Below are positions 3,267 to 63,600 of a DNA stretch of 64,000 bases, in pieces. Position numbers and translations under genes: made by a program. The notes under the pieces are model-generated. The model saw only the letters and a program-made list of their open reading frames with translations, did no database searches and had not been told where the DNA came from. Location: positions 463,717-527,716 of the forward strand of contig AP029158.1 of assembly GCA_037076615.1 (NCBI GenBank), in the 5' to 3' direction. Numbering within the stretch: the first letter of the stretch is position 1; each line of letters starts with the position of its first letter. This DNA is from Candidatus Parcubacteria bacterium. Its GTDB lineage: Bacteria; Patescibacteriota; Patescibacteriia; Patescibacteriales; UBA12465.

Positions 3267-4493
3267 CTATTTTTTATTTTCGAGAAGAGCCAAAGTTTCG
3301 GTCGCACAGCGATACCAGCAAAATTTCTTGGCTTGACGAAATCCGCGCTCTTTTAACTCCGCTCGTAATTCTTTATTTAAAACTAACTCCGCCATCGCCT
3401 CGGCAATCTCGGTATAATCAAGGTGATTAAAATAACGAACCGCCTCACCGGCCACCTCCCTTAAAACAGAGATATCGGAAACGGCCGTCGGCACTCCTGA
3501 AGCCAAAGCTTGCAAAACCGGAATACCAAAGCCTTCGTGTTTAGTGGGAAAAATAAAAGCGGTCGCCTGCTGAAAAATTAACGGTAGCTCATTTTCTTTA
3601 ACCCAGCCCGGCATAATCACCTCGCGCTCTAAATCAAATTCCTCAATAACATACTTAACCTCGTCGTAGCCATAACTGGCATTACCAATTAAAACTAATT
3701 TTTCTTTAATTTCCGGATACTCTTCTCTTAAAAAGGCAAGCGCCTCAACTAAGGCGACCGTATTTTTCTTTTTTTCCAAGCGGCCGACATATAAAAAATA
3801 GGGGCGGGTAATACCGTAACTATCCAAACAACGATCGGCTTCGGAATTCGTGCCGCCGTTGGGTTCGTATAACTCTGAAGCAAAGCCGTTATGAATAACT
3901 TTAATTTTTCCTGGGTCAGCGAAAGGAAAACATTCTAAAATTTCTTGCTTAGTAAAATCAGAAACAGTGATAATTGTTTCCGAGTGGCGCAAGGAAAAAA
4001 TCGTGGACCAAAAAAGATAATCCAAGCTCGTGCCCTGGTAACGACCGCCGCTAAAAACTTTAACCAAAAACTTAATAAAATTACGGCGCTTGGCACTGCG
4101 CGCTTTCGGCGCTTCCGGACGATAAACAGCCTCTTCGCGAGCAAAGGCAATATCATGAATAGTATTAATCGTGCGGCGCGGATGAATTAAGGGAATCCCG
4201 TGGGCGGGAACAAATAAAACATCGGGACGACGAAATAACATCTCTAAAGACAAACGCCCTAGAGTCCAAAAAGAAGTGAGTGGCCAAGACAAAACCCGAA
4301 ACTCAAAATTAGGCGCCTCGGCGACGATCGCCTTTAACTCCGCCGTCGGAATCTGATCCAAATAAAGGCGATAACGGTTATGACGATCAAGACGGGCGAG
4401 CTCTCTGATTAGATAAAAAGAATACCACTCCGTGCCGGTCTTTTTTTGTCTGTTGGCGCGTGAAGCGTCAATACCAATCAACATAAAGCGCAA
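3267..4493 (-). CDS. Glycosyltransferase family 1
   Basis: 408 aa. C-terminal GT1 motif PTKHEGFGIPVLQALASGVPTAVSD. Confidence 0.75.
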   Translation of the reverse strand: MRFMLIGIDASRANRQKKTGTEWYSFYLIRELARLDRHNRYRLYLDQIPTAELKAIVAEAPNFEFRVLSWPLTSFWTLGRLSLEMLFRRPDVLFVPAHGIPLIHPRRTINTIHDIAFAREEAVYRPEAPKARSAKRRNFIKFLVKVFSGGRYQGTSLDYLFWSTIFSLRHSETIITVSDFTKQEILECFPFADPGKIKVIHNGFASELYEPNGGTNSEADRCLDSYGITRPYFLYVGRLEKKKNTVALVEALAFLREEYPEIKEKLVLIGNASYGYDEVKYVIEEFDLEREVIMPGWVKENELPLIFQQATAFIFPTKHEGFGIPVLQALASGVPTAVSDISVLREVAGEAVRYFNHLDYTEIAEAMAELVLNKELRAELKERGFRQAKKFCWYRCATETLALLENKK

Positions 4494-4508
4494 AAATAAA
4501 AAGGCGAC

Positions 4509-5516
4509 TTATTTAGTCGCCAAAATGCTCCGTTTATAGGAGTCTAGATTATCTAAGGCGATGCCGGTTCCTTTAACAACACACAGAAGCGCATCATCGG
4601 CAACATAAGCGGGCACACCGGTCGTGCGCGCAATTAATTGATCCATATTACGCAGCAAAGCGCTGCCACCAGTTAAAACAATACCCTTGTCCATAATATC
4701 AGCCGCTAATTCCGGCGGAGTGGTATTTAGAACTTTCTTGGCGGCCATGACAATGGCTTCTAACTCATTTTGAATCGCTTCGGTGACATCGTCGCTAGAC
4801 ACCGTGATGCTACGCGGTAAGCCAGTGACAATATCTCGACCCCGAATTTCCATATACAGCTTATCTTCCATATACAAGGCAGAGCCGATGTTGATTTTAA
4901 TTTCTTCAGCAGTTCGCTCGCCAATAGCCAAATTATATTTTTTACGGACAAACTCCAAAATTGCGTCGTCAAACTTATTACCACCCACTCGGACTGAAGT
5001 GGAGGAAACAACGCCGCCTAAAGAAATAACGGCCATTTCTGCCGTGCCCCCGCCAACATCAATAACCATATGGCCCGTTGCCGAACCAATCGGAATATCA
5101 GCCCCAATCGCGGCTGCCACCGGCTCCTTAATAATGTAGGTGGCTTTAGCACCCGCGGAAGTTGCCGCTTCAATGACCGCCCGGCGCTCAGTTGAAGAAA
5201 TTCCCGCCGGTACCGAAATCATTACCTCGGGGCGGAAAAAACGCATCCCGCCGATAGTTTTATTAATAAAATAGCGGATCATCGCCTCGGTAGTGCGGTA
5301 ATCAGCAATCACCCCCTCTTTTAAAGGCTGAATGGCCCGAATCGTGTCCGGAGTGCGCCCCAACATATCTTTGGCTTCGTTGCCAACCGCTAAAATCTTA
5401 TTGTCATCGATAGAAATCGCCACCACGGATGGTTCGTTAATCACAATTCCTCTTTTCGGCAAATAAACTAAGGTATAGGTCGTCCCGAGATCGATGCCAA
5501 TGCGTTTTATAAACAT
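4509..5516 (-). CDS. mreB: Actin-like rod-shape protein MreB, second paralog outside the mreBCD operon
   Basis: 335 aa. GIDLGTTYTLVY, NEPSVVA, VIDVGGGTAEMAVISLGG, LTGGSALLRN. Collinear with the MreB at 10298-11344. Confidence 0.85.
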   Translation of the reverse strand: MFIKRIGIDLGTTYTLVYLPKRGIVINEPSVVAISIDDNKILAVGNEAKDMLGRTPDTIRAIQPLKEGVIADYRTTEAMIRYFINKTIGGMRFFRPEVMISVPAGISSTERRAVIEAATSAGAKATYIIKEPVAAAIGADIPIGSATGHMVIDVGGGTAEMAVISLGGVVSSTSVRVGGNKFDDAILEFVRKKYNLAIGERTAEEIKINIGSALYMEDKLYMEIRGRDIVTGLPRSITVSSDDVTEAIQNELEAIVMAAKKVLNTTPPELAADIMDKGIVLTGGSALLRNMDQLIARTTGVPAYVADDALLCVVKGTGIALDNLDSYKRSILATK

Positions 5517-5603
5517 ATTTTTCTAATATCAGTAAAAAAAATCCTGGACCAAGCCGTTAAAAAATTACCGCTTGACCCCTAATTTATAACGGAAAAACCA
5601 CAA

Positions 5604-6050
5604 TTAGTCAATTGCCATTACTTCCTCGCCGTCATTCCAATTACTGTCCGTATCTTCCCCTAAGCGTTCGGAGTTGGCCATAATTTTCTTCACTTTTTCG
5701 GCAAATTCATAAGTATCAAACTCCTCTTTGGGGAAAAAGTAATCAGCGCCGATCTCTAAGCTCCGGGCACGACTATCCTCATCAGAAATATCGGAAAAAA
5801 TAAAGATCGGTAAGTCTGCTAGCTCCGGATCGTTTTTTACGCGCTTGATAATTTCAAAGCCATCTATATTAGGCAGAATCACATCTAAAATTAGATAATC
5901 AGGGCGAAAATCGCGAAGGTCATCAATGATTTCTTCTAACTCCTCTTCCCCCTCGTGAGTTTCCACACTTAAACCATCGGCACTAAAATTAGCCTCAAGG
6001 CTGTAAAGAATGTTGGCATCATCTTCAATGATAAAAAGTTTTTTCCCCAT
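5604..6050 (-). CDS. Stand-alone response-regulator receiver domain (CheY-like)
   Basis: 148 aa. KLFIIEDD acidic pocket, phospho-acceptor context YLILDVILPNIDG. No output domain. Confidence 0.75.
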   Translation of the reverse strand: MGKKLFIIEDDANILYSLEANFSADGLSVETHEGEEELEEIIDDLRDFRPDYLILDVILPNIDGFEIIKRVKNDPELADLPIFIFSDISDEDSRARSLEIGADYFFPKEEFDTYEFAEKVKKIMANSERLGEDTDSNWNDGEEVMAID

Positions 6051-6060
6051 AAGATTAAAA

Positions 6061-7026
6061 TTAAGAACGTAAACGGCGCCACCAAGAAGGATGGTCTTGA
6101 TACCATTTAATCGTTTGCGCTAAACCTGCCGCCAAAGAAACTTGCGGTGCAAAACCTAGTTCGGTCGCCGCTTTAGAAAAATCGATGGCATAACGAAGAT
6201 CGTGACCCAGGCGATCAGTCACATACTCAATCTTGTCTTCTCCCTGCCCCATTAACCGTAAAATATCTTTAGTTAAGGAAAGGTTATCACATTCACTGTT
6301 GCCACCTAAACAATAAGTTTCACCAATTCGTCCTTTATTAATAATTAAGTCCAAGCCGCGATTATGGTCGTCTACATAAATCCAATCCCGAATATTTTTA
6401 CCATCACCATAAACAGTTACCGATTCCCCGTTTAAAAGATTGGTCACAAAGTGCGGAATTAATTTTTCCGGATGTTGGTAGGGGCCGTAATTATTAGAAC
6501 AATTAGAAATGGTAATCGGCAGGCCATAAGTATGATAATAGCTACGGACCAAATGATCAGAAGCAGCTTTTGAGGCGCTATAAGGAGAACGCGGATCGTA
6601 AGGGGTTTTTTCAGAAAACTTCGGTGAGTCAAAGTCTAGCGCACCAAAAACTTCATCAGTAGAAACATGGTGAAAGCGTTTTAAGCCGTGGTGTCTCGCG
6701 GCCTCTAAAAGAACACGGGTACCCTCAACATTAGTTTTAATAAAAGCCGCGCTGTCAGCGATAGAGCGATCAACATGGCTCTCGGCGGCAAAATGAACAA
6801 TCAAATCGCAAGTGGCCACCAAGCCGTCCACCAGTGCCGCATCAGTAATATCACCCTCCACAAACTGGTAATGAGGGTTATTTTCCACCTCAGCCAAGCT
6901 CTCTAAATTAGCGGCGTAAGTTAACGCATCCAAATTAACGATCTCGTCGTCTGGATGTTCACGAAGCCAATAGTGAATAAAATTAGAGCCGATAAATCCG
7001 GCCCCGCCGGTCACTAAAATTTTCAT
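6061..7026 (-). CDS. rfbB: dTDP-glucose 4,6-dehydratase
   Basis: 321 aa. MKILVTGGAGFIGSNF, HVSTDEVFG, YSASKAASDHLV (catalytic YxxxK). Confidence 0.9.
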   Translation of the reverse strand: MKILVTGGAGFIGSNFIHYWLREHPDDEIVNLDALTYAANLESLAEVENNPHYQFVEGDITDAALVDGLVATCDLIVHFAAESHVDRSIADSAAFIKTNVEGTRVLLEAARHHGLKRFHHVSTDEVFGALDFDSPKFSEKTPYDPRSPYSASKAASDHLVRSYYHTYGLPITISNCSNNYGPYQHPEKLIPHFVTNLLNGESVTVYGDGKNIRDWIYVDDHNRGLDLIINKGRIGETYCLGGNSECDNLSLTKDILRLMGQGEDKIEYVTDRLGHDLRYAIDFSKAATELGFAPQVSLAAGLAQTIKWYQDHPSWWRRLRS

Positions 7027-9477: not shown

Positions 9478-10289
9478 ACCACTAAGAGAACATTAACAAT
9501 CGTCAAAGAATTACGATTGAATAAAGGTTCAATATTAACATTCTGCCAAATATCATTATTCAACTTATTGACTTGACTGACCTCGCCAATAAGTAGGCCG
9601 CGCGGGATCTCGCCGCCTAAGCCGGAAGTAATTACCGTATCACCAGGAACAATCGTTTCTGACTGAGGAATGTAAGTCATTTTAATCGTCAACCCCTTAT
9701 CACCTTCCGTTAAGCCAATCGTGCGCGTATCATTTTGAATTGTAGCCGGCAACTGACAATTACGACTGGTCGTTAAACAAACGCGCGCTAAGGTCGGACG
9801 CACTTCGACGACTTTGCCGATAATAACGCCGTTTTCATCAATAACCCCCGCGCCGACGCTAATCCCATCATTGGCGCCTCGATCAATAACAATATCTTGA
9901 TCATCTTGCTTGATGTCAAAAACTAAATTTTGCGAAATAACATTGGCCAACAAACTGGGCTCATCCGTGCTCGCCGCGAAATCTAATTGAGCGCGCAGCT
10001 TAATATTTTCTTGCTCTAGTTCTTTTAAATCGGCGTTGGCGGCGGTGAGCCTAACAACCTGTTCTTGTAAAATATCAACCCGATCAGAAAAATTATTAAA
10101 CTCCTCGCGACGCTCATAAAAATGACGAAGGTTGGCACTGGAGTTATAAAAAAAATTAGCCACCGGTTTAGCGGCCCAAACGGCGGCTTGTTCTAAAGGA
10201 GCCAACCAGCCAAGAAAATGGAAGGTAATCAAAAGAATAATGATCCCCGCCCACCGCCAAATTCGAACTTTATTTTTTGACCGCGCCAT
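9474..10289 (-). CDS. mreC: Rod shape-determining protein MreC
   Basis: 271 aa. N-terminal TM segment, coiled coil (LQEQVVRLTAANADLKELEQENIKLRAQL), beta-rich C-terminal domain with GDTVITSGLGGEIPRGLLIGEV. Confidence 0.8.
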   Translation of the reverse strand: MARSKNKVRIWRWAGIIILLITFHFLGWLAPLEQAAVWAAKPVANFFYNSSANLRHFYERREEFNNFSDRVDILQEQVVRLTAANADLKELEQENIKLRAQLDFAASTDEPSLLANVISQNLVFDIKQDDQDIVIDRGANDGISVGAGVIDENGVIIGKVVEVRPTLARVCLTTSRNCQLPATIQNDTRTIGLTEGDKGLTIKMTYIPQSETIVPGDTVITSGLGGEIPRGLLIGEVSQVNKLNNDIWQNVNIEPLFNRNSLTIVNVLLVV

Positions 10290-10297
10290 AGGCCTAA

Positions 10298-11344
10298 TTA
10301 TTTACTGTCGGTGCTCGGCAAAACGACCTTTTCCAAAAGCTCCCTGTCTTTTAAGAGCATTCCCGTTCCGCGCGCCACACAAGTCAAAGGGTCATTAGCA
10401 ATTTTAACGGGGATCTTAGAGGCTAAGGAGATGGCTTTATCCACGCCGCGCAACAAAGCACCGCCCCCGGAAAGGAAAATTCCCCGCTCATAAATATCTG
10501 CCACGAGCTCCGGTGGCGTTGTTTCTAAAATAGTTTTTATACTCTCAATAATTTTATTCAGCGTGCGGCTTAGGGATTCACGAACCTGAACATCACTAAT
10601 AATAATCGCTCGGGGCAAACCAGTGATTAAATCTCGACCGCGAACTTCAATTTCTTGAGGTTCGTCTAAGGGGATTGCCGAGCCAATCGTTATTTTAATA
10701 TTCTCCGCCACCTGCTCGCCAATTAAAATATTAAACTCCTCGCGAATATACTCAATAATATTTTGATCAAATTCATTGCCCGCCAGACGTAAAGATTTCC
10801 AAGTCACCACACCGCCTAAAGAGATAACGGCAATTTCCGTCGAACCGCCACCGATATCAACCACCATTGTCGCCGTCGCATCCACCACCGGTAAACCGGC
10901 ACCAATCGCCGCCGCCATCGCCTCCTCAATTAAATAAACTTTGCGCGCCCCCGCCGATTTCGTTGCATCTTCAACCGCTTTTCGCTCCACCTCAGTCAAA
11001 TCCAAGGGAATACCCACCACCACGCGCGGTCGCGGCACCAAAGCAAAGTTCTGTTGATGAACTCGAGAGATAAAATACTTAAGCATTTTTTCAGTTATTT
11101 CAAAATCAGAAATCACCCCATCAACTAAAGGTTTAACCGCCTCAATATGACTCGGCGTTTTGCCCACCATTAAACTAGCGGCTTCGCCAACTTCTAAAAT
11201 TTCATTAGTACGCTTATTAATCGCCACAACTGAGGGCTCGTTTACAACCACTCCCTTTTCATTAAGAAAAACGAGGGTGTTTTTTGTTCCCAAATCAATG
11301 CCTAAATCATGGCTCATTTTGCCGCGCAATTTTCCAAACAACAT
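10298..11344 (-). CDS. mreB: Rod shape-determining protein MreB
   Basis: 348 aa. GIDLGTKNTLVF, NEPSVVA, VVDIGGGSTEIAVISLGG, LSGGGALLRG. Confidence 0.9.
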   Translation of the reverse strand: MLFGKLRGKMSHDLGIDLGTKNTLVFLNEKGVVVNEPSVVAINKRTNEILEVGEAASLMVGKTPSHIEAVKPLVDGVISDFEITEKMLKYFISRVHQQNFALVPRPRVVVGIPLDLTEVERKAVEDATKSAGARKVYLIEEAMAAAIGAGLPVVDATATMVVDIGGGSTEIAVISLGGVVTWKSLRLAGNEFDQNIIEYIREEFNILIGEQVAENIKITIGSAIPLDEPQEIEVRGRDLITGLPRAIIISDVQVRESLSRTLNKIIESIKTILETTPPELVADIYERGIFLSGGGALLRGVDKAISLASKIPVKIANDPLTCVARGTGMLLKDRELLEKVVLPSTDSK

Positions 11345-11350
11345 AAAACT

Positions 11351-12577
11351 TTATTTTAAATACTTTATTAAATCAGCCGTGTTCACGATTTCCTCTTTAG
11401 ACCCGGACCGAGCTTTTACTTCTACGCCTCCCGCCGCTAAAGTTTTAGCGGAAACAACCACTCGCCAAGGACAGCCAATTAAATCAGCTTCCGCAAATTT
11501 TTCACCGGCCCCTTTATCGCGATCATCGAATAAAACTTCAAAGCCGGCCGCTTGTAAATCTTGATAAATCCGGGCGGCCGCTTCGTCTTGGTTAAGCGAC
11601 AATAAATGAATTTTAAAAGGAGCAATGGTGGCGGGCCAAATTATTCCCCGCTCATCATGGCAAACTTCAACAACCGCCCCCAAAACGCGACTTAAACCAA
11701 TTCCGTAACAACCCATAACCACCAACTTCTCTTCGCCGTCAGCCGTGCGGTAAGTTAAGTTAAAAGGTTTAGAGAAAGCTGTTCCCAATTTAAAAATATT
11801 CCCGACCTCAACCGCTTTGCGCTCTATTAAATCGGCATTGCCGCAGCCTGGACAAGTTTTTTGTTCAGCAATGATTTCTCGGTTAACGGCTAAGCGACAA
11901 GCATCGCAGCAATAAATTAAATCTTCTCCGGCCTCGGTAAAAGTTTGGAATTCGTGAGAATATTTGGAAAAAGAACCGCCGGCGGCAAAAGTTAAATAGG
12001 TCTTTTCTTTTAAACCGAGACGTTCATAAATCTTGTAGTAAGCCTGCAAAACGCGCTCATAATAATTATCTAAATCCTCTTGATCGGTATGGAAAGAATA
12101 TAAATCTTTCATTAAAAATTCTCGCCCTCTAAGCAAACCGGATTTAGCCCGCTTTTCATTGCGGAATTTAGTTTGAATTTGAAAAACCGAGAATGGCAAA
12201 TCTTTATAAGAAGTAACAAATTTTTTCGCTAACGGGGAAACTTCTTCTTCGTGAGTCGGATTTAAAACATATTCTTTTTGGTCGGAACCGGCCAGACGAA
12301 ACAGAACATCCATCGTCTCTAAGCGGCTGGTCTTCGCCCATAAATCTTTAGGCGCTAACGCCGTCAAACTTATTTCCTGACCGCCAACAGCCTCCATCTC
12401 TTCAACAATGATGCGGCGAATATTATTTAAAACTTTTAAGCCAAGCGGCAGAAAAGAATAAATACCGGCAGACACCTTATCAATAAAACCGGCTCTAATT
12501 AAAGCCTGAGCATTATAGCTCTGCTCATCCTTCGGCAATTCTTTAATTGTTTTCGTAAAAAGATTGGCTTGTTTCAT
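11351..12577 (-). CDS. proS: Prolyl-tRNA synthetase, bacterial type lacking the INS editing domain
   Basis: 408 aa. FQIQTKFRNEKR, REFLMKDLYSFH, GCYGIGLSRV, C-terminal anticodon-binding domain. A short Cys-rich insert sits where INS normally lies. Confidence 0.85.
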   Translation of the reverse strand: MKQANLFTKTIKELPKDEQSYNAQALIRAGFIDKVSAGIYSFLPLGLKVLNNIRRIIVEEMEAVGGQEISLTALAPKDLWAKTSRLETMDVLFRLAGSDQKEYVLNPTHEEEVSPLAKKFVTSYKDLPFSVFQIQTKFRNEKRAKSGLLRGREFLMKDLYSFHTDQEDLDNYYERVLQAYYKIYERLGLKEKTYLTFAAGGSFSKYSHEFQTFTEAGEDLIYCCDACRLAVNREIIAEQKTCPGCGNADLIERKAVEVGNIFKLGTAFSKPFNLTYRTADGEEKLVVMGCYGIGLSRVLGAVVEVCHDERGIIWPATIAPFKIHLLSLNQDEAAARIYQDLQAAGFEVLFDDRDKGAGEKFAEADLIGCPWRVVVSAKTLAAGGVEVKARSGSKEEIVNTADLIKYLK

Positions 12578-37191: not shown

Positions 37192-38160
37192 TTATTCAGT
37201 CGCCAACCTTATTTCCCCACACTTCCCGTTAGTAGCATCAACAGCATCAAAAATATCGTCAATGTTCGGCTCGTAAGCGGATAGTTTAGTGCCATCTTTT
37301 AAGGTTAGCTCCACAAATTCTTGATGACTTTGAAAAGCCTCCTCCACTTCACAATTATTAATCGCTTCTAAGAGGATGGGCCAGGTGCTATTGGCCTCGT
37401 TTACAAAAGAGCGGTTATCAGGAGTCAAGCAAAGATTGGGGTTAGTTTCATCAACTTTTAAGCCAGCAGCCACACAATCATCATAATTTCTAATTCCATC
37501 TAAGAGAGCCTGACAATAGTCATGGCTGCCCCAATCGCTGGCAACCAAACAAACAGCCAAACGATCTTTAATAGTGGTTTGCGAAAGAGTAATAGTCTTA
37601 ACAATCTCTTCCACTAAGGCGTCAAGATTGAAATCAGCCTGCTCTTTTTCACAAGCGGTCTTCTCCGGGTCGTCATAGTTAACGCATTGCGGATAGCCAA
37701 GGAAGAAAGAAATAACTCCGGTTTGGCCGGCCAGGGGGAAATAATAACTATAGTTTTTGTAGATGGTGCCGGCCGCTCCCTCAGAATAAGTGGAAACGCA
37801 GTAAGAACGACCATCAATTGTCTTCTCAGCTTTCCAAATTCCCGGCGATGACTCATTGCCGACAGGATTACAAGAATAAGGGGCATTTAAAACAATTAAT
37901 GTTGGTGACCAGTCTCGAGAAGAAATGTATTTTGTCTCAAGTCTAGGCGGATAACTGTAGGATTCACCGGTATCGGTAACGCTAAACACCCAGTCGGCGG
38001 GGAGATTAATTCCAGAAGAAATATCGCGCTGGCCGTCATCATTTGTCACTAAAACGGCGGCGGCGATCATCACTAAACCAAGGGCGATTAAAAGCAAAAG
38101 GGGCCCATAATGGAAGGGTCTCTTGGTGGTGGTTTTTTTAAAAGAATTTTCAGGTTCCAT
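37192..38160 (-). CDS. Hypothetical Cys-rich exported or membrane-anchored protein (orphan)
   Basis: 322-aa ORF. N-terminal TM/signal anchor (LLLLIALGLVMIAAAVLV), many Cys residues. Terminator follows. Confidence 0.45.
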   Translation of the reverse strand: MEPENSFKKTTTKRPFHYGPLLLLIALGLVMIAAAVLVTNDDGQRDISSGINLPADWVFSVTDTGESYSYPPRLETKYISSRDWSPTLIVLNAPYSCNPVGNESSPGIWKAEKTIDGRSYCVSTYSEGAAGTIYKNYSYYFPLAGQTGVISFFLGYPQCVNYDDPEKTACEKEQADFNLDALVEEIVKTITLSQTTIKDRLAVCLVASDWGSHDYCQALLDGIRNYDDCVAAGLKVDETNPNLCLTPDNRSFVNEANSTWPILLEAINNCEVEEAFQSHQEFVELTLKDGTKLSAYEPNIDDIFDAVDATNGKCGEIRLATE

Positions 38161-38252
38161 ATGTTTTTTAAAATTAAAGAAAACGAAGTCTTCTTAAGAG
38201 AATAATAGCAAATTTAAGGATTTTGGGGAATTGGATTAAAAAAGGTTAAATT

Positions 38253-39112
38253 TTAAAATCTCAACCAGTTTGGCGGAATCAGATCGCTATCATCCGCCTT
38301 ATCATTAGCAAACCATTGTTTTGGAGCGATTATTATTTTTGTAGGGTTACTAATTAACCATGCGCCCCACCAAGAAAATGAGCTATTAGCGACAACACCG
38401 TGACGGCACTGGCTCATTAAAGCAAGCTCTTCAAAGTCTTGGAGATTACCATCGGAAACGTAAACTGCATCTTCAATTTTTAGGTAATCTTGAACCCAAG
38501 AAATATCATCAGAAAAAATAAAAAACCTAGGATTTTTTACCTTCCCTCTCATAAACTTGACCGCTCGCTCGTAGTAATCCAAAGGACAAAGACCTAAAAA
38601 TTTATTAGCGGCGCTATTTGAAACATAATCACCACGACGAATATGAACAAAGATTGATTCAGATTCAGTAATATTTAGATTAGTATTTAAAGGAGTTTTT
38701 AATTTAAACTCTTCATTTAAAATATCCACTATATCCTCAAAGTATTTATAACTTTGAAAAAACCCTGTTAGCCAAATATTATCTTTAAGCCGTAAAATAT
38801 TAGAATCAAAGCCGACTCCATTTTCAAAATAATATTTTTTTAAATAAAATCGAGTCTTTAAACCAATTTTCCTTAATATTTTATGAAGTAGGTTTATTTT
38901 TTTATAAATAAGGCCAGCGGGATTATTACTTACCGCTTTAATATTATAGAGATTTAATAAATATTGACGTGGTGTATCCGAACCACCATAGGGGGGGTCA
39001 GATAACTATAATCAATATTTATTTCAGTATTATTCTTTAGCGCCAGTTGGCGAGCAACAGCGTACTGGAATAGTTGATTGCCAAGCCCACCTTTTATTTT
39101 TAAATTGACCAT
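38253..39112 (-). pseudogene. GT11 alpha-1,2-fucosyltransferase, reading frame broken at a C7 (G7 on + strand) homopolymer
   Basis: ATG at 39112 gives MVNLKIKGGLGNQLFQYAVARQLALKNNTEINIDYSYLTPP, then runs out of frame after the tract at 38991-38997. The next frame continues ..YGGSDTPRQYLLNLYNIKAV...HIRRGDY... to the stop at 38253. One extra C would give an intact 286-aa protein. Confidence 0.75.
38991..38997 (-). repeat. Homopolymer G7 (+ strand) / C7 (coding strand) at the fucosyltransferase frameshift
   Basis: Read directly: ...accata ggggggg tca... at 38991-38997. Confidence 0.9.
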
Positions 39113-39852
39113 AAACTTAAAAATATCCTTAAAATAGATTTTAATTTTGCCTTAAAGTAGCCAGGATAATCTTTTTTATATTTATTAATTATTTGATTAG
39201 TAACAATCGCTATTTTATACTTATTTTTTTTAGAAATCCCTTCATTATGTATAAGATAAGCGACAAGCGGTTCGCCAATATTTGCCAATCTAAAATTGCG
39301 TCCGATTTTTAACCATAAATCGAAATCTTCACAAACAACTAAAGATTCATCATAGCCAGCAACTAAATTAAATACTTCTTTTTTAAATAAAACACTGGAT
39401 TGGGCAAATTGATTTTTAAATAAAATTTTTTTTCTAATTGAATTATCTTGAGTTTTAAAAATATCTTCTTTTATTTTAATTCCCTTCTCATTAAAACAAA
39501 TAATGCCAGTACCAACTAACCCAACTCTACTATCTTGATTGAATATATTTAATTGTTTTTGCAGTTTATTATTATCTAACCAATAATCATCACTATCTAG
39601 CATGGCAATATATTCCCCCCTAGCCATGGAAATGCCTAAATTACGACTTTTAGAAATACCTAAATTGATATTATTCTTATAATATTTAATCCTTTCATCA
39701 GTTAAACTACCAATTAAAATTCCCGTATCATCAGTTGAAGCATCATCAATAATTATTAACTCAATATCTTTATAGGTCTGTAATAAAACACTCTTTATAG
39801 CTATTGAAAGTAAATCGGAACGATTGTAGGTACAAATAATAACAGAAATCAT
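39100..39852 (-). CDS. Glycosyltransferase family 2
   Basis: 250 aa. MISVIICTYNR, IIDDASTDDT, AMLDSDD (DxD). Confidence 0.8.
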   Translation of the reverse strand: MISVIICTYNRSDLLSIAIKSVLLQTYKDIELIIIDDASTDDTGILIGSLTDERIKYYKNNINLGISKSRNLGISMARGEYIAMLDSDDYWLDNNKLQKQLNIFNQDSRVGLVGTGIICFNEKGIKIKEDIFKTQDNSIRKKILFKNQFAQSSVLFKKEVFNLVAGYDESLVVCEDFDLWLKIGRNFRLANIGEPLVAYLIHNEGISKKNKYKIAIVTNQIINKYKKDYPGYFKAKLKSILRIFLSLWSI

Positions 39853-39863
39853 AAGTGAAAAAA

Positions 39864-40787
39864 TTATTTCTCTACCAATTCTGCTAGCCCAATAGCATTA
39901 TCTTTATGAATAAAAATTAAATTATCATAAACATATTTATCTTTTGCTTTGTGTAAACTAAGGTTTCCATTCACATCACACTCATATGCTATATAATTAT
40001 TTGTTAATAAAATATCAATAGACTTACGGCAATTATCCTTCCATTCATCCTCGCCAGCAACCTCAATACTAATAACCGGTTTTAATTCTTTCATAATATA
40101 ACCCATGCCTTCCAGAATAAGATGTTCTGCGCCCTCAGCATCAATTTTAATAAATGTTGGAGTTATATTATGTTTTTTACAATAATCATCAAGAACAGTT
40201 GTTTTAACTTTTATCTCAATAGCATTCTTCCTCAAAAATTTAGTGTCGTCAGATGTTCTTTTTCTAAATCCATTAAAAGCACTAAATTTAGGACCATAAT
40301 CTATAAAATTTATTTCTTTTTCCTCATTAAGAACGGCGAGATTATTGATAATTACATTACCACTTTCTTTTGTGTTTATTTTTAAAGATGAGAAAGTTCT
40401 TGGTGTCGGCTCAAAACTATAGACACGCCCAGAATCTTCAACCAACCGAGAGCACAAAACGGTATAGTAGCCAACGTGAGCACCAACATCTAAAAAACAA
40501 TCTCCCTTTTTGAGAAAATTTAATAAAAAAATAGTTAAATTTGCTTCAAAAAACCCATAATAAAGAATTGCCTGGCCTTCTGGTAAAAAATAAGTCATTT
40601 TATCACCCCATAAAGTTTTTACCCTGACTTTATAAGGATGAATTCGAGCTATTATGGCTAAAACGTAAAAAAACAATGTTCTAATTGGATCTTTAACTAA
40701 CCTCAAAAAACGATTATTATTTATTTTATAAAGCTCATGCCTTTTCAAAACTTTTTCTTTTAACAATTCCCTTTCCTCACTATTCAT
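39864..40787 (-). CDS. FkbM-family SAM-dependent methyltransferase
   Basis: 307 aa. FLDVGAHVGYYT SAM-binding motif, IKIDAEGAE motif typical of the FkbM family. Confidence 0.7.
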   Translation of the reverse strand: MNSEERELLKEKVLKRHELYKINNNRFLRLVKDPIRTLFFYVLAIIARIHPYKVRVKTLWGDKMTYFLPEGQAILYYGFFEANLTIFLLNFLKKGDCFLDVGAHVGYYTVLCSRLVEDSGRVYSFEPTPRTFSSLKINTKESGNVIINNLAVLNEEKEINFIDYGPKFSAFNGFRKRTSDDTKFLRKNAIEIKVKTTVLDDYCKKHNITPTFIKIDAEGAEHLILEGMGYIMKELKPVISIEVAGEDEWKDNCRKSIDILLTNNYIAYECDVNGNLSLHKAKDKYVYDNLIFIHKDNAIGLAELVEK

Positions 40788-40793
40788 ATTTTT

Positions 40794-41897
40794 TTAATTA
40801 TTTTTATAAACCTCTAAATATTTTTCTACCATCTCGGCAACAGAAAACCTATCAGTAGCGGCTAGCACTGAGCTATCTTTAAATAACAGCTGCAGAAAAT
40901 CATCTAAGTTATTTACTTCAAAACAATTCTCTTGACCAACTACCTCACTATTGCCACCAACATCACTGGCGATAGTCGGCACGCCCGACTTCAAGGCTTC
41001 AATAAGAGAAATAGATAAACCTTCATAAAGAGAGGGTAAAACAAAGACATTAAAAGCTTTAATAAAGCGGCTGGCTTCAGAAACTGCGCCCATTAAAAAA
41101 AACTGCCGCTCTAAACCTTTTTCTTTGATAAGTGTTTCATACTTTTCTCGCTCCGGACCTTCACCAATTATTACTCCTTTGGCATCAGGTTTTATTTTTA
41201 ATATCTCGGAGAAAGAATCAATTAAAAATTCATAATTTTTTGGAAAAGCTAGGCGACCAATAGAGCCAATAATATAAGCTTGGCTAAGATCCTCGCCAAG
41301 GCGATCAGAAATAAATTGTCGCGCCTCTTCTCGGTTTTTAAAATAACCACTCGGGAAATCTAAGCCGTTATAAATTAGAACGCCTTTTTTGGCGATGCCT
41401 AATTTTTTGGCAGTATTTAAATTATGCTCACTAACAAAAACCACCTTGTCGGTAAACCTTAGAAAGAATTTGAAAAAAGCCTTAAACCCTAATTTTATCA
41501 AAGGACTACTTTTATAATTCTCATCTAAAACCGATAGCCCGTGAACGGTAAAAATAACCCCTGGCTTAGGACCGCAAAGCTTGGCGGCCAGGGCTCCGGG
41601 TAAAGTGTTAGAGCTATTAAGATGAACAATATCAAAGCTTTCTCTCTTAATAACTCCTTTTAACTCTTTAATAAAAGATAAGATTTGAAAAGGATTACGG
41701 CTCCGCTTTAAGCTACCTAATCTGATTGTTTTTATTCCTGCCGGCGCTAGCTTCTCGGCCAAAAAATCACCCTCACCAAAAGCAACCACGACTTCGTGAT
41801 CTTTATGTTTAAGTCCTTGAGCGAGAGCTAAAATAAACGACTGGGCCCCGCCTATTTCGCCTTTGGTAATAACCAACAAAATCTTCATATTACCCAA
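40794..41897 (-). CDS. Glycosyltransferase family 1
   Basis: 367 aa. N-terminal KGEIGGAQSF. C-terminal PSLYEGLSISLIEALKSGVPTIASDVGG. Confidence 0.75.
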   Translation of the reverse strand: MGNMKILLVITKGEIGGAQSFILALAQGLKHKDHEVVVAFGEGDFLAEKLAPAGIKTIRLGSLKRSRNPFQILSFIKELKGVIKRESFDIVHLNSSNTLPGALAAKLCGPKPGVIFTVHGLSVLDENYKSSPLIKLGFKAFFKFFLRFTDKVVFVSEHNLNTAKKLGIAKKGVLIYNGLDFPSGYFKNREEARQFISDRLGEDLSQAYIIGSIGRLAFPKNYEFLIDSFSEILKIKPDAKGVIIGEGPEREKYETLIKEKGLERQFFLMGAVSEASRFIKAFNVFVLPSLYEGLSISLIEALKSGVPTIASDVGGNSEVVGQENCFEVNNLDDFLQLLFKDSSVLAATDRFSVAEMVEKYLEVYKNN

Positions 41898-41899
41898 TA

Positions 41900-42151
41900 T
41901 TATACCAGTTTGTTTTTAATATTCCTATTTTCCACCCCCTCCTCCAAATAGAAAAGTTTATCAATCGGCGTAGCGAGCTCGGCGGCAATCGTGAGCGCTA
42001 ATTTTAGCGAGGGATTGTACTTCCCTTGTTCTAAAAAAACAATGGTCTCCCGCCGCACCCCAACCCGCACCGCCAGATCTTCCTGGGTTAACCCCTGCTG
42101 CAAGCGACACTCTTTTAAATTGACGCCTAGCTCCTTATTTTTTCCAGGCAT
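41900..42151 (-). CDS. XRE-family helix-turn-helix transcriptional regulator
   Basis: 83 aa. [36 protein letters not shown]. Confidence 0.8.
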
Positions 42152-43847: not shown

Positions 43848-44396
43848 TTAATTATCCCCATATATTCCGGGAGAACAGATCCCTATCGCAACCTTTCCAT
43901 ATGGGCCATCGCTGTACTGATTTAACTGACTCTCCATTACGATATTTTTTTTCTTAAAAAAGGCAATCATACTTTTATCTTCTTCGAAGGTGTCTTCCAG
44001 TAAATATAAAACATCATCATTTTCACTAATTTTTTTTAAATTAACTGGACCATTAAACATTAAATCTCTCCTCATACGGGGAGTATCCGTTTGTAAGTCC
44101 ATTAAAATAATGTTAGTAGCAAACGTAAGGATGCCTGAGCTCGTAACAATTTTCTCACCTATCAATCTAGCGGTTGATTCTCCTATTAAGTTGCACGTAA
44201 CATTATTAGAAAAATTATCAGCTTCTGCCCAATATTCACCGATGTTTATTTCTGGACTGCCAGTATAATATTCATGAAAAGCTTTATGCTCTTCGTCCAT
44301 TACCGCTCCTGAGTGGGAAAGATATAAAAACAAAATTAGAAAAACAAGGAGACCCAAAACAACACTAATTAATAACACTAACTTGTTTCTTTTCAT
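43848..44396 (-). CDS. Hypothetical membrane-anchored protein (orphan)
   Basis: 182-aa ORF with an N-terminal TM helix. An extended -10 element lies upstream and a terminator downstream. Confidence 0.4.
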   Translation of the reverse strand: MKRNKLVLLISVVLGLLVFLILFLYLSHSGAVMDEEHKAFHEYYTGSPEINIGEYWAEADNFSNNVTCNLIGESTARLIGEKIVTSSGILTFATNIILMDLQTDTPRMRRDLMFNGPVNLKKISENDDVLYLLEDTFEEDKSMIAFFKKKNIVMESQLNQYSDGPYGKVAIGICSPGIYGDN

Positions 44397-44423
44397 AAAA
44401 AACTAATTAATTATTATGTTTTA

Positions 44424-44432
44424 ATTATACCA
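44424..44432 (-). promoter_or_regulatory. Candidate extended -10 promoter (TGgTATAAT) for the 43848-44396 gene
   Basis: Minus strand reads gTGgTATAATtaaaac, about 28 nt upstream of the ATG at 44396. Confidence 0.35.
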
Positions 44433-44433
44433 C

Positions 44434-44459
44434 AAAAAACACCCTAGCGGGTGTTTTTT
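44434..44459 (-). terminator. Intrinsic terminator immediately after the duplicated tRNA-Ser 3' end
   Basis: Minus strand AAAAAACACCC-GCTA-GGGTGTTTTTT. Confidence 0.7.
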
Positions 44460-44463
44460 ATAT

Positions 44464-44488
44464 GCGGAGAGCAAGGAATTACGAACCC
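44464..44488 (-). repeat. Direct repeat of the tRNA-Ser 3' end (acceptor 3' strand plus T-arm 3' half)
   Basis: The + strand GCGGAGAGCAAGG at 44464-44476 is identical to 44671-44683. It then continues aATTaCGAACCC versus gATT-CGAACCC in the tRNA. Confidence 0.85.
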
Positions 44489-44627
44489 GTCGCTTCGCTC
44501 CCCTCAGGGGGCTTCCGCCCTCTTAGGCACTCCTCATTTCATTCGTCGCTGACACCCCCGCAAAAACGGTGGGAAACCTAGGTTTCCCAAACCCTTCCTA
44601 GGGTTCGAATCTTTTCATAACCAACCC
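44489..44627 (-). other. Body of tRNA-Ser-linked non-coding module (module A)
   Basis: 139 nt without a plausible ORF. Contains anti-T-arm GATTCGAACCCT (44600-44611), an 18-nt perfect palindrome (44571-44588), ACGAATG (44540-44546) and a GGGC-GGAA-GCCC hairpin (44509-44520). Confidence 0.5.
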
Positions 44628-44670
44628 TCATACAACAAAGACGCCCCCTTGGGGCGTCTTTGTTGTATGA
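44628..44670 (-). terminator. Perfect 20-bp hairpin directly after tRNA-Ser
   Basis: TCATACAACAAAGACGCCCC / GGGGCGTCTTTGTTGTATGA with a 3-nt loop. GC-rich core flanked by A-rich and T-rich arms. Confidence 0.6.
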
Positions 44671-44671
44671 G

Positions 44672-44756
44672 CGGAGAGCAAGGGATTCGAACCCTTGATA
44701 CCTTGCGGTATACACGCTTTCCAAGCGTGCGCACTAGACCACTATGCGAGCTCTCC
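44672..44756 (-). tRNA. tRNA-Ser (anticodon GGA), class II with long variable arm; CCA not encoded
   Basis: Minus strand GGAGAGC-TC-GCATAGTGGTCTAGTGC-G-CACGC-TTGGAAA-GCGTG-TATACCGCAAGGTATC-AAGGG-TTCGAAT-CCCTT-GCTCTCC-G. Hand-folded cloverleaf. Confidence 0.9.
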
Positions 44757-44804
44757 AAAAGCGCCCGAAGGCGCTGAGGGGTAAAATTAAATCCGAAAAC
44801 AGAA

Positions 44805-45521
44805 TTATTGTAAGTACTGGGAAACAATTGTCTTCAAACCTTCCACTTCTTTGCCGTCGCTATCGGTATAATTTTCATAGGGACGAGCACCGACAATTAT
44901 ATCATCATTGATAAATAAAGTCGGCGCGCCATAGACTGAATGGCTCTTGGCCGCGGCTGTTTCCTGTAGTATTATTCCCTGTTTTTCGGTATTGGTCAAG
45001 CAAGACTTAAAATCTTCTTCATTCAACTTCAATTCTTGCGCGACCCGCAGCAGTGATTGCTCGGTTAAGCGGTCATCTTTTACAATTTTAAAAACTTCAG
45101 TACGCATTTTTTTCCATTCTTTCTGCTCGCCGGCGCAACGAACCGCCATTGCGGCCAGTAAAGAATCAGCTTTTTCCCGAACAGCATAAGGACGAACGGT
45201 AATGGCCACCGACTTCCCAAATTCCGCCCGGATTCTATCTAAATTATCGGCATTAATCGCCGAGAACTCACTCGCATAATCTTCATAGACCACAATCTTA
45301 AGGTCTGCCTTCTCTGATCCTAAAACAAAATCAGCGGCCGACAAAACCGGCGGCTCATCAGCAACAAAACTGGCCGATTTTTCGGTCAAAGGTGAAACCG
45401 TTTCATTTGCTGGCTCCCCGGCCTTTTGTTTGCTAAACATTAAAGCTACTAAAGAGAGAGCAACCACCAAAGTAATAGTCCAGAGAACGGCTTTAGATTT
45501 TTTTAATTCAAGCTTAGTCAT
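44805..45521 (-). CDS. DsbA-family thioredoxin-fold protein, membrane-anchored, active-site CxxC replaced by SxxS
   Basis: 238 aa. N-terminal TM segment. DsbA/BdbD-like motifs CAGEQKEWKKM and YGAPTLFINDDIIVGARP. YEDYASEFSA stands where F.D..CP.C is expected. Confidence 0.7.
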   Translation of the reverse strand: MTKLELKKSKAVLWTITLVVALSLVALMFSKQKAGEPANETVSPLTEKSASFVADEPPVLSAADFVLGSEKADLKIVVYEDYASEFSAINADNLDRIRAEFGKSVAITVRPYAVREKADSLLAAMAVRCAGEQKEWKKMRTEVFKIVKDDRLTEQSLLRVAQELKLNEEDFKSCLTNTEKQGIILQETAAAKSHSVYGAPTLFINDDIIVGARPYENYTDSDGKEVEGLKTIVSQYLQ

Positions 45522-63309: not shown

Positions 63310-63381
63310 GGTCCCTTCGTCTAACGGTTAGGACGCCAGGTTCTCATCCTGGTAACAGGGGTTCGATTCCCCTAGGGACTA
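63310..63381 (+). tRNA. tRNA-Glu (anticodon CUC); CCA not encoded
   Basis: GGTCCCT-TC-GTCT-AACGGTTA-GGAC-G-CCAGG-TTCTCAT-CCTGG-TAAC-AGGGG-TTCGATT-CCCCT-AGGGACT-A. Hand-folded; resembles bacterial tRNA-Glu. Confidence 0.9.
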
Positions 63382-63383
63382 CT

Positions 63384-63420
63384 AAACAAAACAACACCTC
63401 AGAGAGGTGTTGTTTTGTTT
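63384..63420 (+). terminator. Perfect 17-bp hairpin directly after tRNA-Glu
   Basis: AAACAAAACAACACCTC-AGA-GAGGTGTTGTTTTGTTT. Confidence 0.6.
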
Positions 63421-63582
63421 AGACGGCGTTAGCCGCGGGAATCGAACAGGTTGGAAATGAGTCAAATCCGAGCCGCTATTTCGAGCGGCGAGGATACAGA
63501 CGAATGTCGGACAATATGCCGGGGGCATATTGAACGCCAACCCTGGACAAGTGAGCTTTTCGGAAGAAAAGCGAGCGCGATA
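63421..63582 (+). other. Body of tRNA-Glu-linked non-coding module (module B)
   Basis: 162 nt. Anti-T-arm GGGAATCGAAC (63437-63447), hairpins GCCGCT/AGCGGC (63472-63489) and CAATATGCC-GGG-GGCATATTG (63512-63532), closing pair GGCGTT/AACGCC (63425-63430 / 63533-63538), ACGAATG (63500-63506), GCTTTTC-GGAA-GAAAAGC (63555-63572). Confidence 0.5.
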
Positions 63583-63600
63583 ATTCCCCTAGGGACTACT
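63583..63600 (+). repeat. Direct repeat of the tRNA-Glu 3' end
   Basis: ATTCCCCTAGGGACTACT is identical at 63366-63383 (tRNA 3' end plus 2 nt) and 63583-63600. Confidence 0.9.

Follow-up and report, generated by a model that had tools for sequence, protein, structure and literature searches.

The window analyzed here is the whole 64,000-nucleotide stretch of contig AP029158.1 (positions 463,717 to 527,716) from a Candidatus Parcubacteria bacterium. On its minus strand, the segment 44464-44670 follows a tRNA-Ser(GGA) gene and ends in a second copy of the 3' end of that gene. Our best explanation, held with moderate confidence, is that this segment is one unit of the tRNA-linked repeat (TLR) type, i.e., a non-autonomous cassette encoding a structured RNA that is co-transcribed with the tRNA. 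This explanation builds on the following observations: i) the cassette is a discrete insertion at the tRNA 3' boundary; ii) nearly identical cores stand behind different tRNAs, with both tRNA-matching ends rewritten; iii) the core of the type present at a tRNA-Glu gene of the same window folds as a conserved single strand with tRNA-sense polarity; and iv) no recombinase is associated with the cassette. The cassette is non-autonomous, and it moves, or moved until recently, between tRNA genes. The initial annotation of the window had offered two readings, a family of miniature integrative elements resembling cis-mobilizable elements (CIMEs) or a family of tRNA-linked structured RNAs. The discrete insertion without a recombinase and, for the Glu type, the folded and covarying core have held up, and the CIME form has not. 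That the layout is already known as the TLR of E. coli had been missed.

Organization of the tRNA-Ser cassette

The intact tRNA-Ser(GGA) gene, which does not encode CCA, is placed by ARAGORN at 44671-44756 of the minus strand and by the Rfam tRNA model at 44672-44756 (55.5 bits). The cassette begins 1 nt past the tRNA end, has the same orientation, and extends over ~207 bp without a gene. Its first part, T1 (44628-44670), is a perfect 20-bp hairpin with a 3-nt loop and the stem TCATACAACAAAGACGCCCC / GGGGCGTCTTTGTTGTATGA. T1 adjoins the tRNA end and is terminator-like by its sequence and by a terminator scan, with an A-rich arm, a GC top and a U-rich arm. It is followed by seg1 (GATTCGAACCCT, 44600-44611), an antisense copy of the T-arm of its own tRNA (the reverse complement of AGGGTTCGAATC) and the 5' strand of a closing helix, P1. 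The structured core that comes next (44489-44599), supported by identity to the core of locus L169 and by a consensus fold, contains the palindrome GGGAAACCTAGGTTTCCC (44571-44588) and a GGGC-GGAA-GCCC hairpin (44509-44520). A 14-mer motif, GGAGCGAAGCGACG, in common with the first RtT unit of E. coli, lies at 44488-44501. The 3' strand of P1, as read from the sequence and from RNAalifold, is a T-arm-like sense stretch, GGGTTCGTAATTC (44476-44488), which differs from GGGTTCGAATCCC of the tRNA by one T inserted in the T-loop and one C-to-T change. Finally, a 13-nt copy of the tRNA 3' end, CCTTGCTCTCCGC (44464-44476), is identical to 44671-44683, and the distal copy is followed by T2 (~44434-44459), a hairpin between an A-tract and a T-tract that resembles an intrinsic terminator.

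Most of these parts had been recognized in the initial annotation. The tRNA, the 20-bp hairpin and a hairpin-rich stretch without an open reading frame (ORF) lie on the minus strand where it had put them. The sequence also bears out the 13-nt copy with one substitution and one 1-nt insertion upstream of it, and a terminator of its own does follow this second tRNA tail. The antisense segment seg1, present in each of the two modules of the window, had been overlooked. No ORF of note is found in the Ser module. The Rfam check that had been proposed assigned the Ser segment to no known RNA family: scans at the gathering threshold and at E<=10, covering the window and 44300-44900, called no family but tRNA. 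The T1 loop (44648-44650) is reverse-complemented relative to that of locus L188 (3874-3876; AAG versus CTT) in cassettes that are otherwise near-identical, a flip of the palindrome.

The second cassette, at tRNA-Glu

The same order of tRNA, hairpin, module and tail copy recurs at tRNA-Glu, as first noted from the sequence. On the plus strand, the tRNA-Glu(CTC) gene (63310-63382; ARAGORN and Rfam) is followed, again from 1 nt past its end, by a T1 with an 18-bp stem and a 3-nt loop (63383-63421). The Glu-type module (63434-63599), with helices P2-P5 after seg1, is supported by its fold, by covariation and by the Glu-type covariance model R1, with which it scores 154 bits. Its seg1, GGGAATCGAAC (63437-63447), is antisense to the T-arm of its own tRNA, and its tail copy, ATTCCCCTAGGGACTAC, is 17 nt long (63583-63599). 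The loop letters of seg1 track each tRNA, GAAT in the Ser cassette and GATT in the Glu cassette.

Collinear landmarks had been proposed for the two modules. The layout is indeed collinear, but this does not extend to the core, where the shared motif is at chance level. That motif, GACGAATG, was rejected as a sign of homology, and a pairwise MAFFT alignment of the two modules was uninformative outside the tRNA parts. The iterated Glu-type model, R2, did not align the window Ser module. Since the motif is at chance level and the model fails on the Ser module, the two cassettes share a layout and not a demonstrably homologous core.

The closing helix and a conserved fold

In P1, seg1 pairs with the T-loop and T-stem stretch of the distal copy, and the 12-14-nt tail that ends the copy lies outside the fold. 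Seg1 matches its own tRNA in more than 50 loci. Strong evidence for a fold comes from an alignment (A2) of 12 Glu-type modules carrying six different tRNA tails (five isoacceptors called; the tRNA of L037 was not called). Its consensus has 40 pairs in five helices, with compensatory double changes in 26 of the 40. In A2, 94% of the cells are paired, versus 33-41% when the partners are slid by 1-3 columns, and none of 500 shuffles reached this pairing or this covariation. The window Glu module by itself has a fold z-score of -4.45. By our count, the pair-type lists of A2 hold ~23 G:U cells versus ~6 A:C cells, an excess that points to the tRNA-sense strand as the one that folds.

Within the Ser type, the window module belongs to a subgroup (the window, L025, L169 and L174) with the core GGAAGGGTTTGGGAAAC...GGAGCGAAGCG, which is too conserved for covariation; one pair covaries, in P1. 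RNAalifold gave a consistent consensus fold of this subgroup that includes P1, with a conserved extra pyrimidine bulged in the helix; L025, L169 and L174 all have this additional base, within TTCG[Y]AAW. The fold of the window Ser module alone is not significant (z = -1.1), and 21 Ser-type modules aligned together were too diverse to yield a consensus fold (6 pairs). In a second Ser-type subgroup (L148, L166, L170, L175 and L179), a 13-15-nt mini-hairpin stands between the ATTCC(C) part and an 11-12-nt tail, so that contiguous identity to the tRNA is confined to the tail.

Covariation of this kind is equally compatible with single-stranded DNA. The module might then be a folded attachment (att) site, used in the manner of the CTX-phage attP or the integron attC: seg1 and the distal T-arm copy would pair into a duplex resembling the T-arm of the tRNA gene, one strand would be exchanged with that gene by a tyrosine recombinase of the host, Xer-type or other, and replication would fix the insertion. 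In those systems, too, two inverted target-like copies pair within a structured single strand, structure is kept more than sequence, arrays occur, and no recombinase is encoded within the unit. The integrated CTX geometry is a hybrid site, a short body, an inverted site, a structured spacer and a second hybrid site, and the parts of the cassette stand in a matching order. P1 reproduces up to 15 bp of the T-arm duplex and, in the Ser subgroup, places the conserved single-base bulge at the T-loop centre. We nevertheless consider this origin very improbable. There is no evident source of a ~200-nt single-stranded circle, and no replication or HUH-endonuclease gene was found among the commonest families near the modules; the cassette, unlike CTX attP and attC, shows no link to Xer or IntI, carries no cargo and has a tRNA gene as its target. 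The many G:U pairs, and a decayed copy at locus L007 that keeps its pairing only through G:U, fit RNA better than DNA. Furthermore, the E. coli relatives of the cassette are expressed as RNA, their TLRs having been reported as processed RNAs (PMC8144298).

Insertion at tRNA 3' ends

Relatives of the two loci were ranked by the identity of a neighboring protein to that of the window, Fmt for the Glu locus and DsbA for the Ser locus. The Glu site is occupied in L012 (Fmt 97%), L007 (78%), L013 (75%) and L018 (63%), and is empty in L009 and L008, which have the same Fmt protein (61%). The terminator AAAAACGAAGA..TCTTCGTTTTT stands directly after tRNA-Glu in L009 and after the distal copy in L018; likewise, TATCGGGGAACTAGCACTGGCTAGTTCC stands directly after tRNA-Glu in L008 and after the distal copy in L013. 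The inserted unit therefore consists of the hairpin, the module and the tail copy, and it lies between the tRNA and the native terminator. The Ser site is occupied in L188 (DsbA 89%) by a cassette nearly identical to that of the window. It is empty in L190/L191 (70%) and in L194 (52%; the same genome as L018), where unrelated sequence and no module follows the tRNA. Empty sites, which the initial annotation had suggested looking for at tRNA-Ser, are thus found at both loci, and at the Glu locus the native terminator is seen directly after the tRNA. T1 turns over: the T1 hairpins of the window and L007 are unrelated although the cores are 92% identical, and T1 equivalents have been exchanged wholesale among the Glu-locus relatives.

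Two minor observations concern these sites. In L190, the empty tRNA-Ser site has a bAvd and an RVT_1 reverse-transcriptase gene (5101-6471) ~1.3 kb away, a combination characteristic of diversity-generating retroelements. Logan assemblies of the window's own genome (L001, L004 and L005) break at or near the tRNA/T1 boundary (window ~44650 and ~63370), and one Logan contig spans the interval between the two cassettes; the breaks are probably due to the perfect palindromes.

The distal sequence keeps a T-arm-like stretch and the acceptor 3' strand, as a decayed tandem duplicate of the tRNA gene would. That origin is effectively refuted. The empty sites in relatives show no second tRNA, ARAGORN and Rfam find no tRNA-like 5' part, the same core stands behind different tRNAs, and neither an antisense T-arm segment nor T1 is expected from tandem duplication.

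Direct repeats derived from an attachment site and empty sites in relatives are both present, as for an integrative element or a CIME. The cassette could accordingly be a DNA-only mini integrative element, CIME-like, with attL and attR around a naked attP. A tyrosine integrase supplied from elsewhere would recombine the tRNA gene with an attP core that has the same sequence as the tRNA 3' end. T1 and the proximal tRNA end would then derive from the element, the distal copy would be the displaced native end, and any RNA would be incidental. Such an element would account for the precise insertion, with the native terminator after the distal copy, and for the identity block from the T-loop to the tRNA end, which is what tRNA-targeting integrases with a T-loop crossover produce. 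At 180-230 bp the unit has about the size of a lambda-type attP. Tandem arrays, a P4-like integrase ORF just beyond the array at L023, and the decay of the distal tail in L007 and L017 point the same way.

Even so, a DNA-only element is unlikely. A double-stranded att site gives no reason for 26 compensated pairs or for helices that tolerate G:U on one strand, and the mini-hairpin of the second Ser-type subgroup limits contiguous identity to the tail. Similar layouts and a shared 14-mer from E. coli to Patescibacteria are not what arm sites of divergent integrases would be expected to show. CIMEs are likewise segments without recombination genes bounded by direct repeats of a tRNA 3' end, with empty sites in relatives, but they are kilobase-scale decay products of a specific integrative element and have no conserved fold; the 150-nt core of the cassette, in contrast, is conserved, covaries and recurs across phyla. 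The CIME idea of the initial annotation does not explain this deeply conserved core.

Nor is an integrase enriched beside the modules. The flanks of the window modules hold no recombinase. Among 145 ORFs within 1 kb of modules at 70 loci, the 25 commonest Pfam families were all housekeeping families, with no recombinase, transposase or reverse transcriptase, and a phmmer search with the L023 integrase against the ORFs near modules at the 70 loci gave no match. The description of a bounded segment without a recombinase thus holds for the cassette and for its surroundings, and the proposed search for an integrase tied to it found none enriched.

Exchange of tRNA partners

The window Ser core is identical at 98 of 107 positions (92%) to the L169 core, which follows tRNA-Gln(TTG), and the tails of the two cassettes agree at 6 of 13 positions. 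Seg1 and the distal T-stem flanks have been rewritten between them, CCC..GGG to CCAG..CTGG, in each case matching the T-stem of the tRNA. Similarly, the window Glu core is 70% identical to that of L027, linked to a tRNA-Gly, and less so to those of the Glu-linked L018 (49%) and L061 (47%). Overall, the Ser-type core is found behind tRNA-Ser and tRNA-Gln, and the Glu-type core behind tRNA-Glu, tRNA-Gly, tRNA-Trp and tRNA-Ser. The cores do not track tRNA identity, and the cassettes therefore change partners. Only where CCA is part of the tRNA gene does the distal copy carry it as well, which indicates that the duplication was made at the DNA level and not from mature tRNA.

A constant core with both adaptors rewritten for each partner tRNA would also be expected of a guide-type RNA, in which seg1 and the tail act as programmable adaptors that pair with the tRNA, its precursor or its gene. 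The proposed roles include directing RNase P in the manner of an external guide, serving as a decoy or sensor of the cognate tRNA, and guiding a recombinase like a bridge RNA. Complementarity of seg1 to the real tRNA commonly extends over 12-15 nt, into tRNA-specific T-stem positions, and exceeds that to the distal copy. The tail covaries with no internal segment, and it is probably free, since GCGGGGG is invariant although the tails differ. However, the need for P1 to pair with the distal tRNA copy is enough to make seg1 match the tRNA, and no pairing in trans is required. No IS110-type or other candidate effector gene was found beside the window modules or among the commonest families near modules at the 70 loci. 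A guide function is quite improbable.

Relationship to the tRNA-linked repeats of E. coli

The literature on TLRs goes back to 1978 (Egan & Landy 1978; Rudd 1999; summarised in PMC8144298), with RtT/rttR of the tyrT operon (RF00391) as the prototype. A TLR lies directly downstream of a tRNA or rRNA gene and repeats at its own 3' end, without mismatch, the last 18-19 bp of this gene; ten loci of E. coli K-12 together carry 22 TLRs (PMC8144298). No function is known for the tRNA-linked members, and the repeat has been suggested by the authors to direct 3' processing by RNase E (PMC8144298). A stringent-response role for rtT is still repeated in two sources, but the claim was later withdrawn (PMC8144298) and is set aside here.

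The window modules have the layout that defines TLRs. The units stand immediately downstream of the tRNA, co-oriented with it; they are ~100-200 nt long without an ORF; their 3' end copies the 3' end of the upstream gene, with 13 nt (Ser) and 17 nt (Glu) identical; and tandem arrays occur. Each unit is closed by a helix between a 5' segment and the tRNA-derived 3' repeat, which in RtT is formed by GGGGAAGGAU with AUCCUUCCCC. The 5S-linked RrA/B/F repeats of E. coli lie, like the window cassette, between two terminators, and they are read through.

The differences are also clear. The copies in the window are shorter, 13 or 17 nt versus 18-19 bp, and end without CCA because the window tRNA genes have none. 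In the window, the long perfect hairpin T1 stands between tRNA and module. P1 of the window modules has a 5' strand that is antisense to the T-loop and the 5' T-stem strand, whereas in E. coli it is antisense to the 3' T-stem strand and the acceptor. The cores differ, and the host is a Patescibacteria metagenome-assembled genome (MAG), not an enterobacterium.

The window modules are not members of the Rfam RtT family, RF00391. At the gathering threshold, Rfam calls only units of the Thioalkalivibrio type as RtT, and the Patescibacteria, Clostridia and Coxiella types match no family. On Thioalkalivibrio-type units recovered with a pattern built from the window modules, RF00391 scores above its cut-off of 45 bits (54, 51 and 49.6 bits); the loci with RtT matches are L023, L067 and L075, the last from Thioalkalivibrio versutus AL2. 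The E. coli tyrT locus (L024) has four RtT units (133-137 bits), and the final 19 nt of tRNA-Tyr stand at the end of each. L023, a high-GC viral contig, carries four tandem units, each ending in a tRNA-Ser-like tail, and two of them are called as RtT at 54 bits. The L023 array (the region is 9960-12453) has the arrangement A-B-A-B with a period of 368 and is followed by an inverted tRNA 3' fragment (~10900-10960) and then by the P4-like integrase ORF (11020-12453); ARAGORN found no intact tRNA upstream of the array.

Two kinds of match bear on homology between the types. The 14-mer GGAGCGAAGCGACG occupies an equivalent position in the Ser core and in the first E. coli RtT unit, 5' of the (G)TAAT(T)CC junction; the local alignment has a z of 4.5, and its score was reached by none of 300 shuffles. 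Model R1 finds Clostridia- and Christensenellaceae-type modules at E-values of 1e-4 to 1e-7 and one Ser-type module, L091, at 2e-5. With R2, the RtT-class units L075, L084 and L067 are found at 7e-4 to 2e-3, among loci pre-selected for seg1.

A model for the cassette

In order, the parts of the cassette are T1, a ~150-nt structured domain closed by P1, the 13-nt copy of the tRNA tail and T2, and a working model can be proposed for them. Promoter-like sites lie upstream of both tRNAs of the window, and none was found between T1 and the module at either cassette. The module would lack a promoter of its own, and its transcription would start at the tRNA promoter and run through T1. The copied tail beside P1 may allow the tRNA 3'-end maturation machinery to define and protect the 3' end of the RNA. 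The predicted product is a stable small RNA, ~160-200 nt long, at a level that follows transcription of the tRNA. Gain, loss and retargeting of the cassette among tRNA genes would proceed by recombination, with the universal T-loop and tRNA-tail sequences as the probable seeds.

Several points weigh against this explanation and against the kinship with RtT. If T1 terminates efficiently, which is conceivable, the module would not be transcribed. Only the Glu type has demonstrated covariation. The distal tail of L007 has decayed at several positions while the core is still 92% identical, which argues against a strong constraint on the tail in all cases. RF00391 has no match on either window module, even at E<=10, nor on the Glu-type relatives. 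The 14-mer is the sole primary-sequence link of the Ser module to E. coli RtT, and it has no counterpart in RtT units 2-4. The cross-type E-values are inflated because the loci were pre-selected by a pattern containing seg1, and R2, besides failing on the window Ser module, leaves E. coli RtT unaligned as well. The class is therefore one of layout, not of cores with demonstrated common descent.

The co-transcribed structured RNA cassette can be extended to a bolder, distinctly unlikely proposal. TLR-type cassettes in general would be pan-bacterial, gene-less mobile RNA cassettes that home to tRNA 3' ends by means of two exchangeable base-pairing adaptors, seg1 and the tail copy. Single-stranded P1 would mimic the T-arm of the target and serve as a recombination substrate for host enzymes, and retargeting would take place by rewriting of the adaptors.

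Distribution of the layout

A pattern derived from both window modules and their relatives, GGTTCGAWTCC N{58,88} AWTCGAAC N{4,5} GGAA, was used to scan species-representative genomes, with hosts taken from record titles. At least 120 loci were found. More than 50 of them have a distal 12-nt copy of the tRNA tail 160-250 nt downstream, which places the layout far beyond chance; several are tandem, with a period of ~175-185 nt. Further copies beside other tRNAs, which the initial annotation had suggested looking for, are thus numerous. The hosts include Patescibacteria, Kazan, Clostridia/Christensenellaceae/Lutispora, Thioalkalivibrio and other Gammaproteobacteria, Coxiellaceae, Treponemataceae/Spirochaetales, Alphaproteobacteria and Longimicrobiales. 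The partner tRNAs include Ser (four anticodons), Glu, Gln, Pro, Gly, Tyr, Trp, Arg, Ala, Val and Ile. A Ser-type signature found 43 loci in metagenomes, ~20 of them with complete Ser-type modules behind many different tRNAs. The one Saccharibacteria match (L080) was rejected as a cassette, being a second tRNA-Ser gene instead, and two of three pattern matches on viral contigs (L021 and L022) were set aside as chance matches.

Individual loci depart from the simple arrangement. A 7-kb Patescibacteria MAG locus (L122) has Glu-type modules at 4435-4600, 6599-6761 and 6815-6980; two stand adjacent behind tRNA-Glu, and the third lies 2.2 kb away with no tRNA called beside it. The Ser-type module of L161 (~708, minus strand) has a well conserved 5' part of the core and no recognizable upstream tRNA, and its 3' end has diverged or been truncated; this module may be decaying or may have been relocated. 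L025, L027, L037, L061, L113, L138 and L141 come from MAGs titled 'uncultured Gammaproteobacteria', and their modules are nearly identical to the Patescibacteria types; the taxonomic labels of these MAGs look doubtful.

The kind of element is thus known (TLR/RtT), and the Patescibacteria variant is one in a new phylum. The pan-bacterial layout, the covarying core and the switching of partners go beyond the descriptions found in the searched literature. In the searchable literature, where the term is rarely used, TLRs are treated as an enterobacterial curiosity. This picture is changed: the same layout, with different cores, is found in Patescibacteria, Clostridia, Gammaproteobacteria, Spirochaetes and other groups, one core type has a fold supported by covariation, and the cassettes come and go and switch tRNA partners. 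TLRs would become a tractable comparative problem, either as widespread tRNA-coupled structured RNAs or as mobile cassettes. There are practical consequences as well. Perfect T1 palindromes are the likely cause of breaks in short-read assemblies at tRNA genes, and duplicated tRNA tails can be mistaken for the att sites of genomic islands.

Genomic neighborhood

The genes flanking the window cassettes are housekeeping genes, DsbA-like, GatA, GatC and PGK on one side and Fmt on the other, and homologues are named Parcubacteria, Falkowbacteria or Patescibacteria; an identical DsbA-like protein is found in a Parcubacteria MAG. In L008, a large serine recombinase, a REP_ORF2-G2P replication gene and defence-like ATPases (4326-7024 and on to ~13900) lie directly beyond the native tRNA-Glu terminator. 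The region looks like an integrated island at the very tRNA that carries the module in the window. The recombinase was considered as the integrase of the module and rejected, as it lies beyond the native terminator and is not tied to a module. Within the window, 38001-42000 has a GC content of 0.30-0.35 versus 0.41-0.46 in the rest, and may be a foreign segment.

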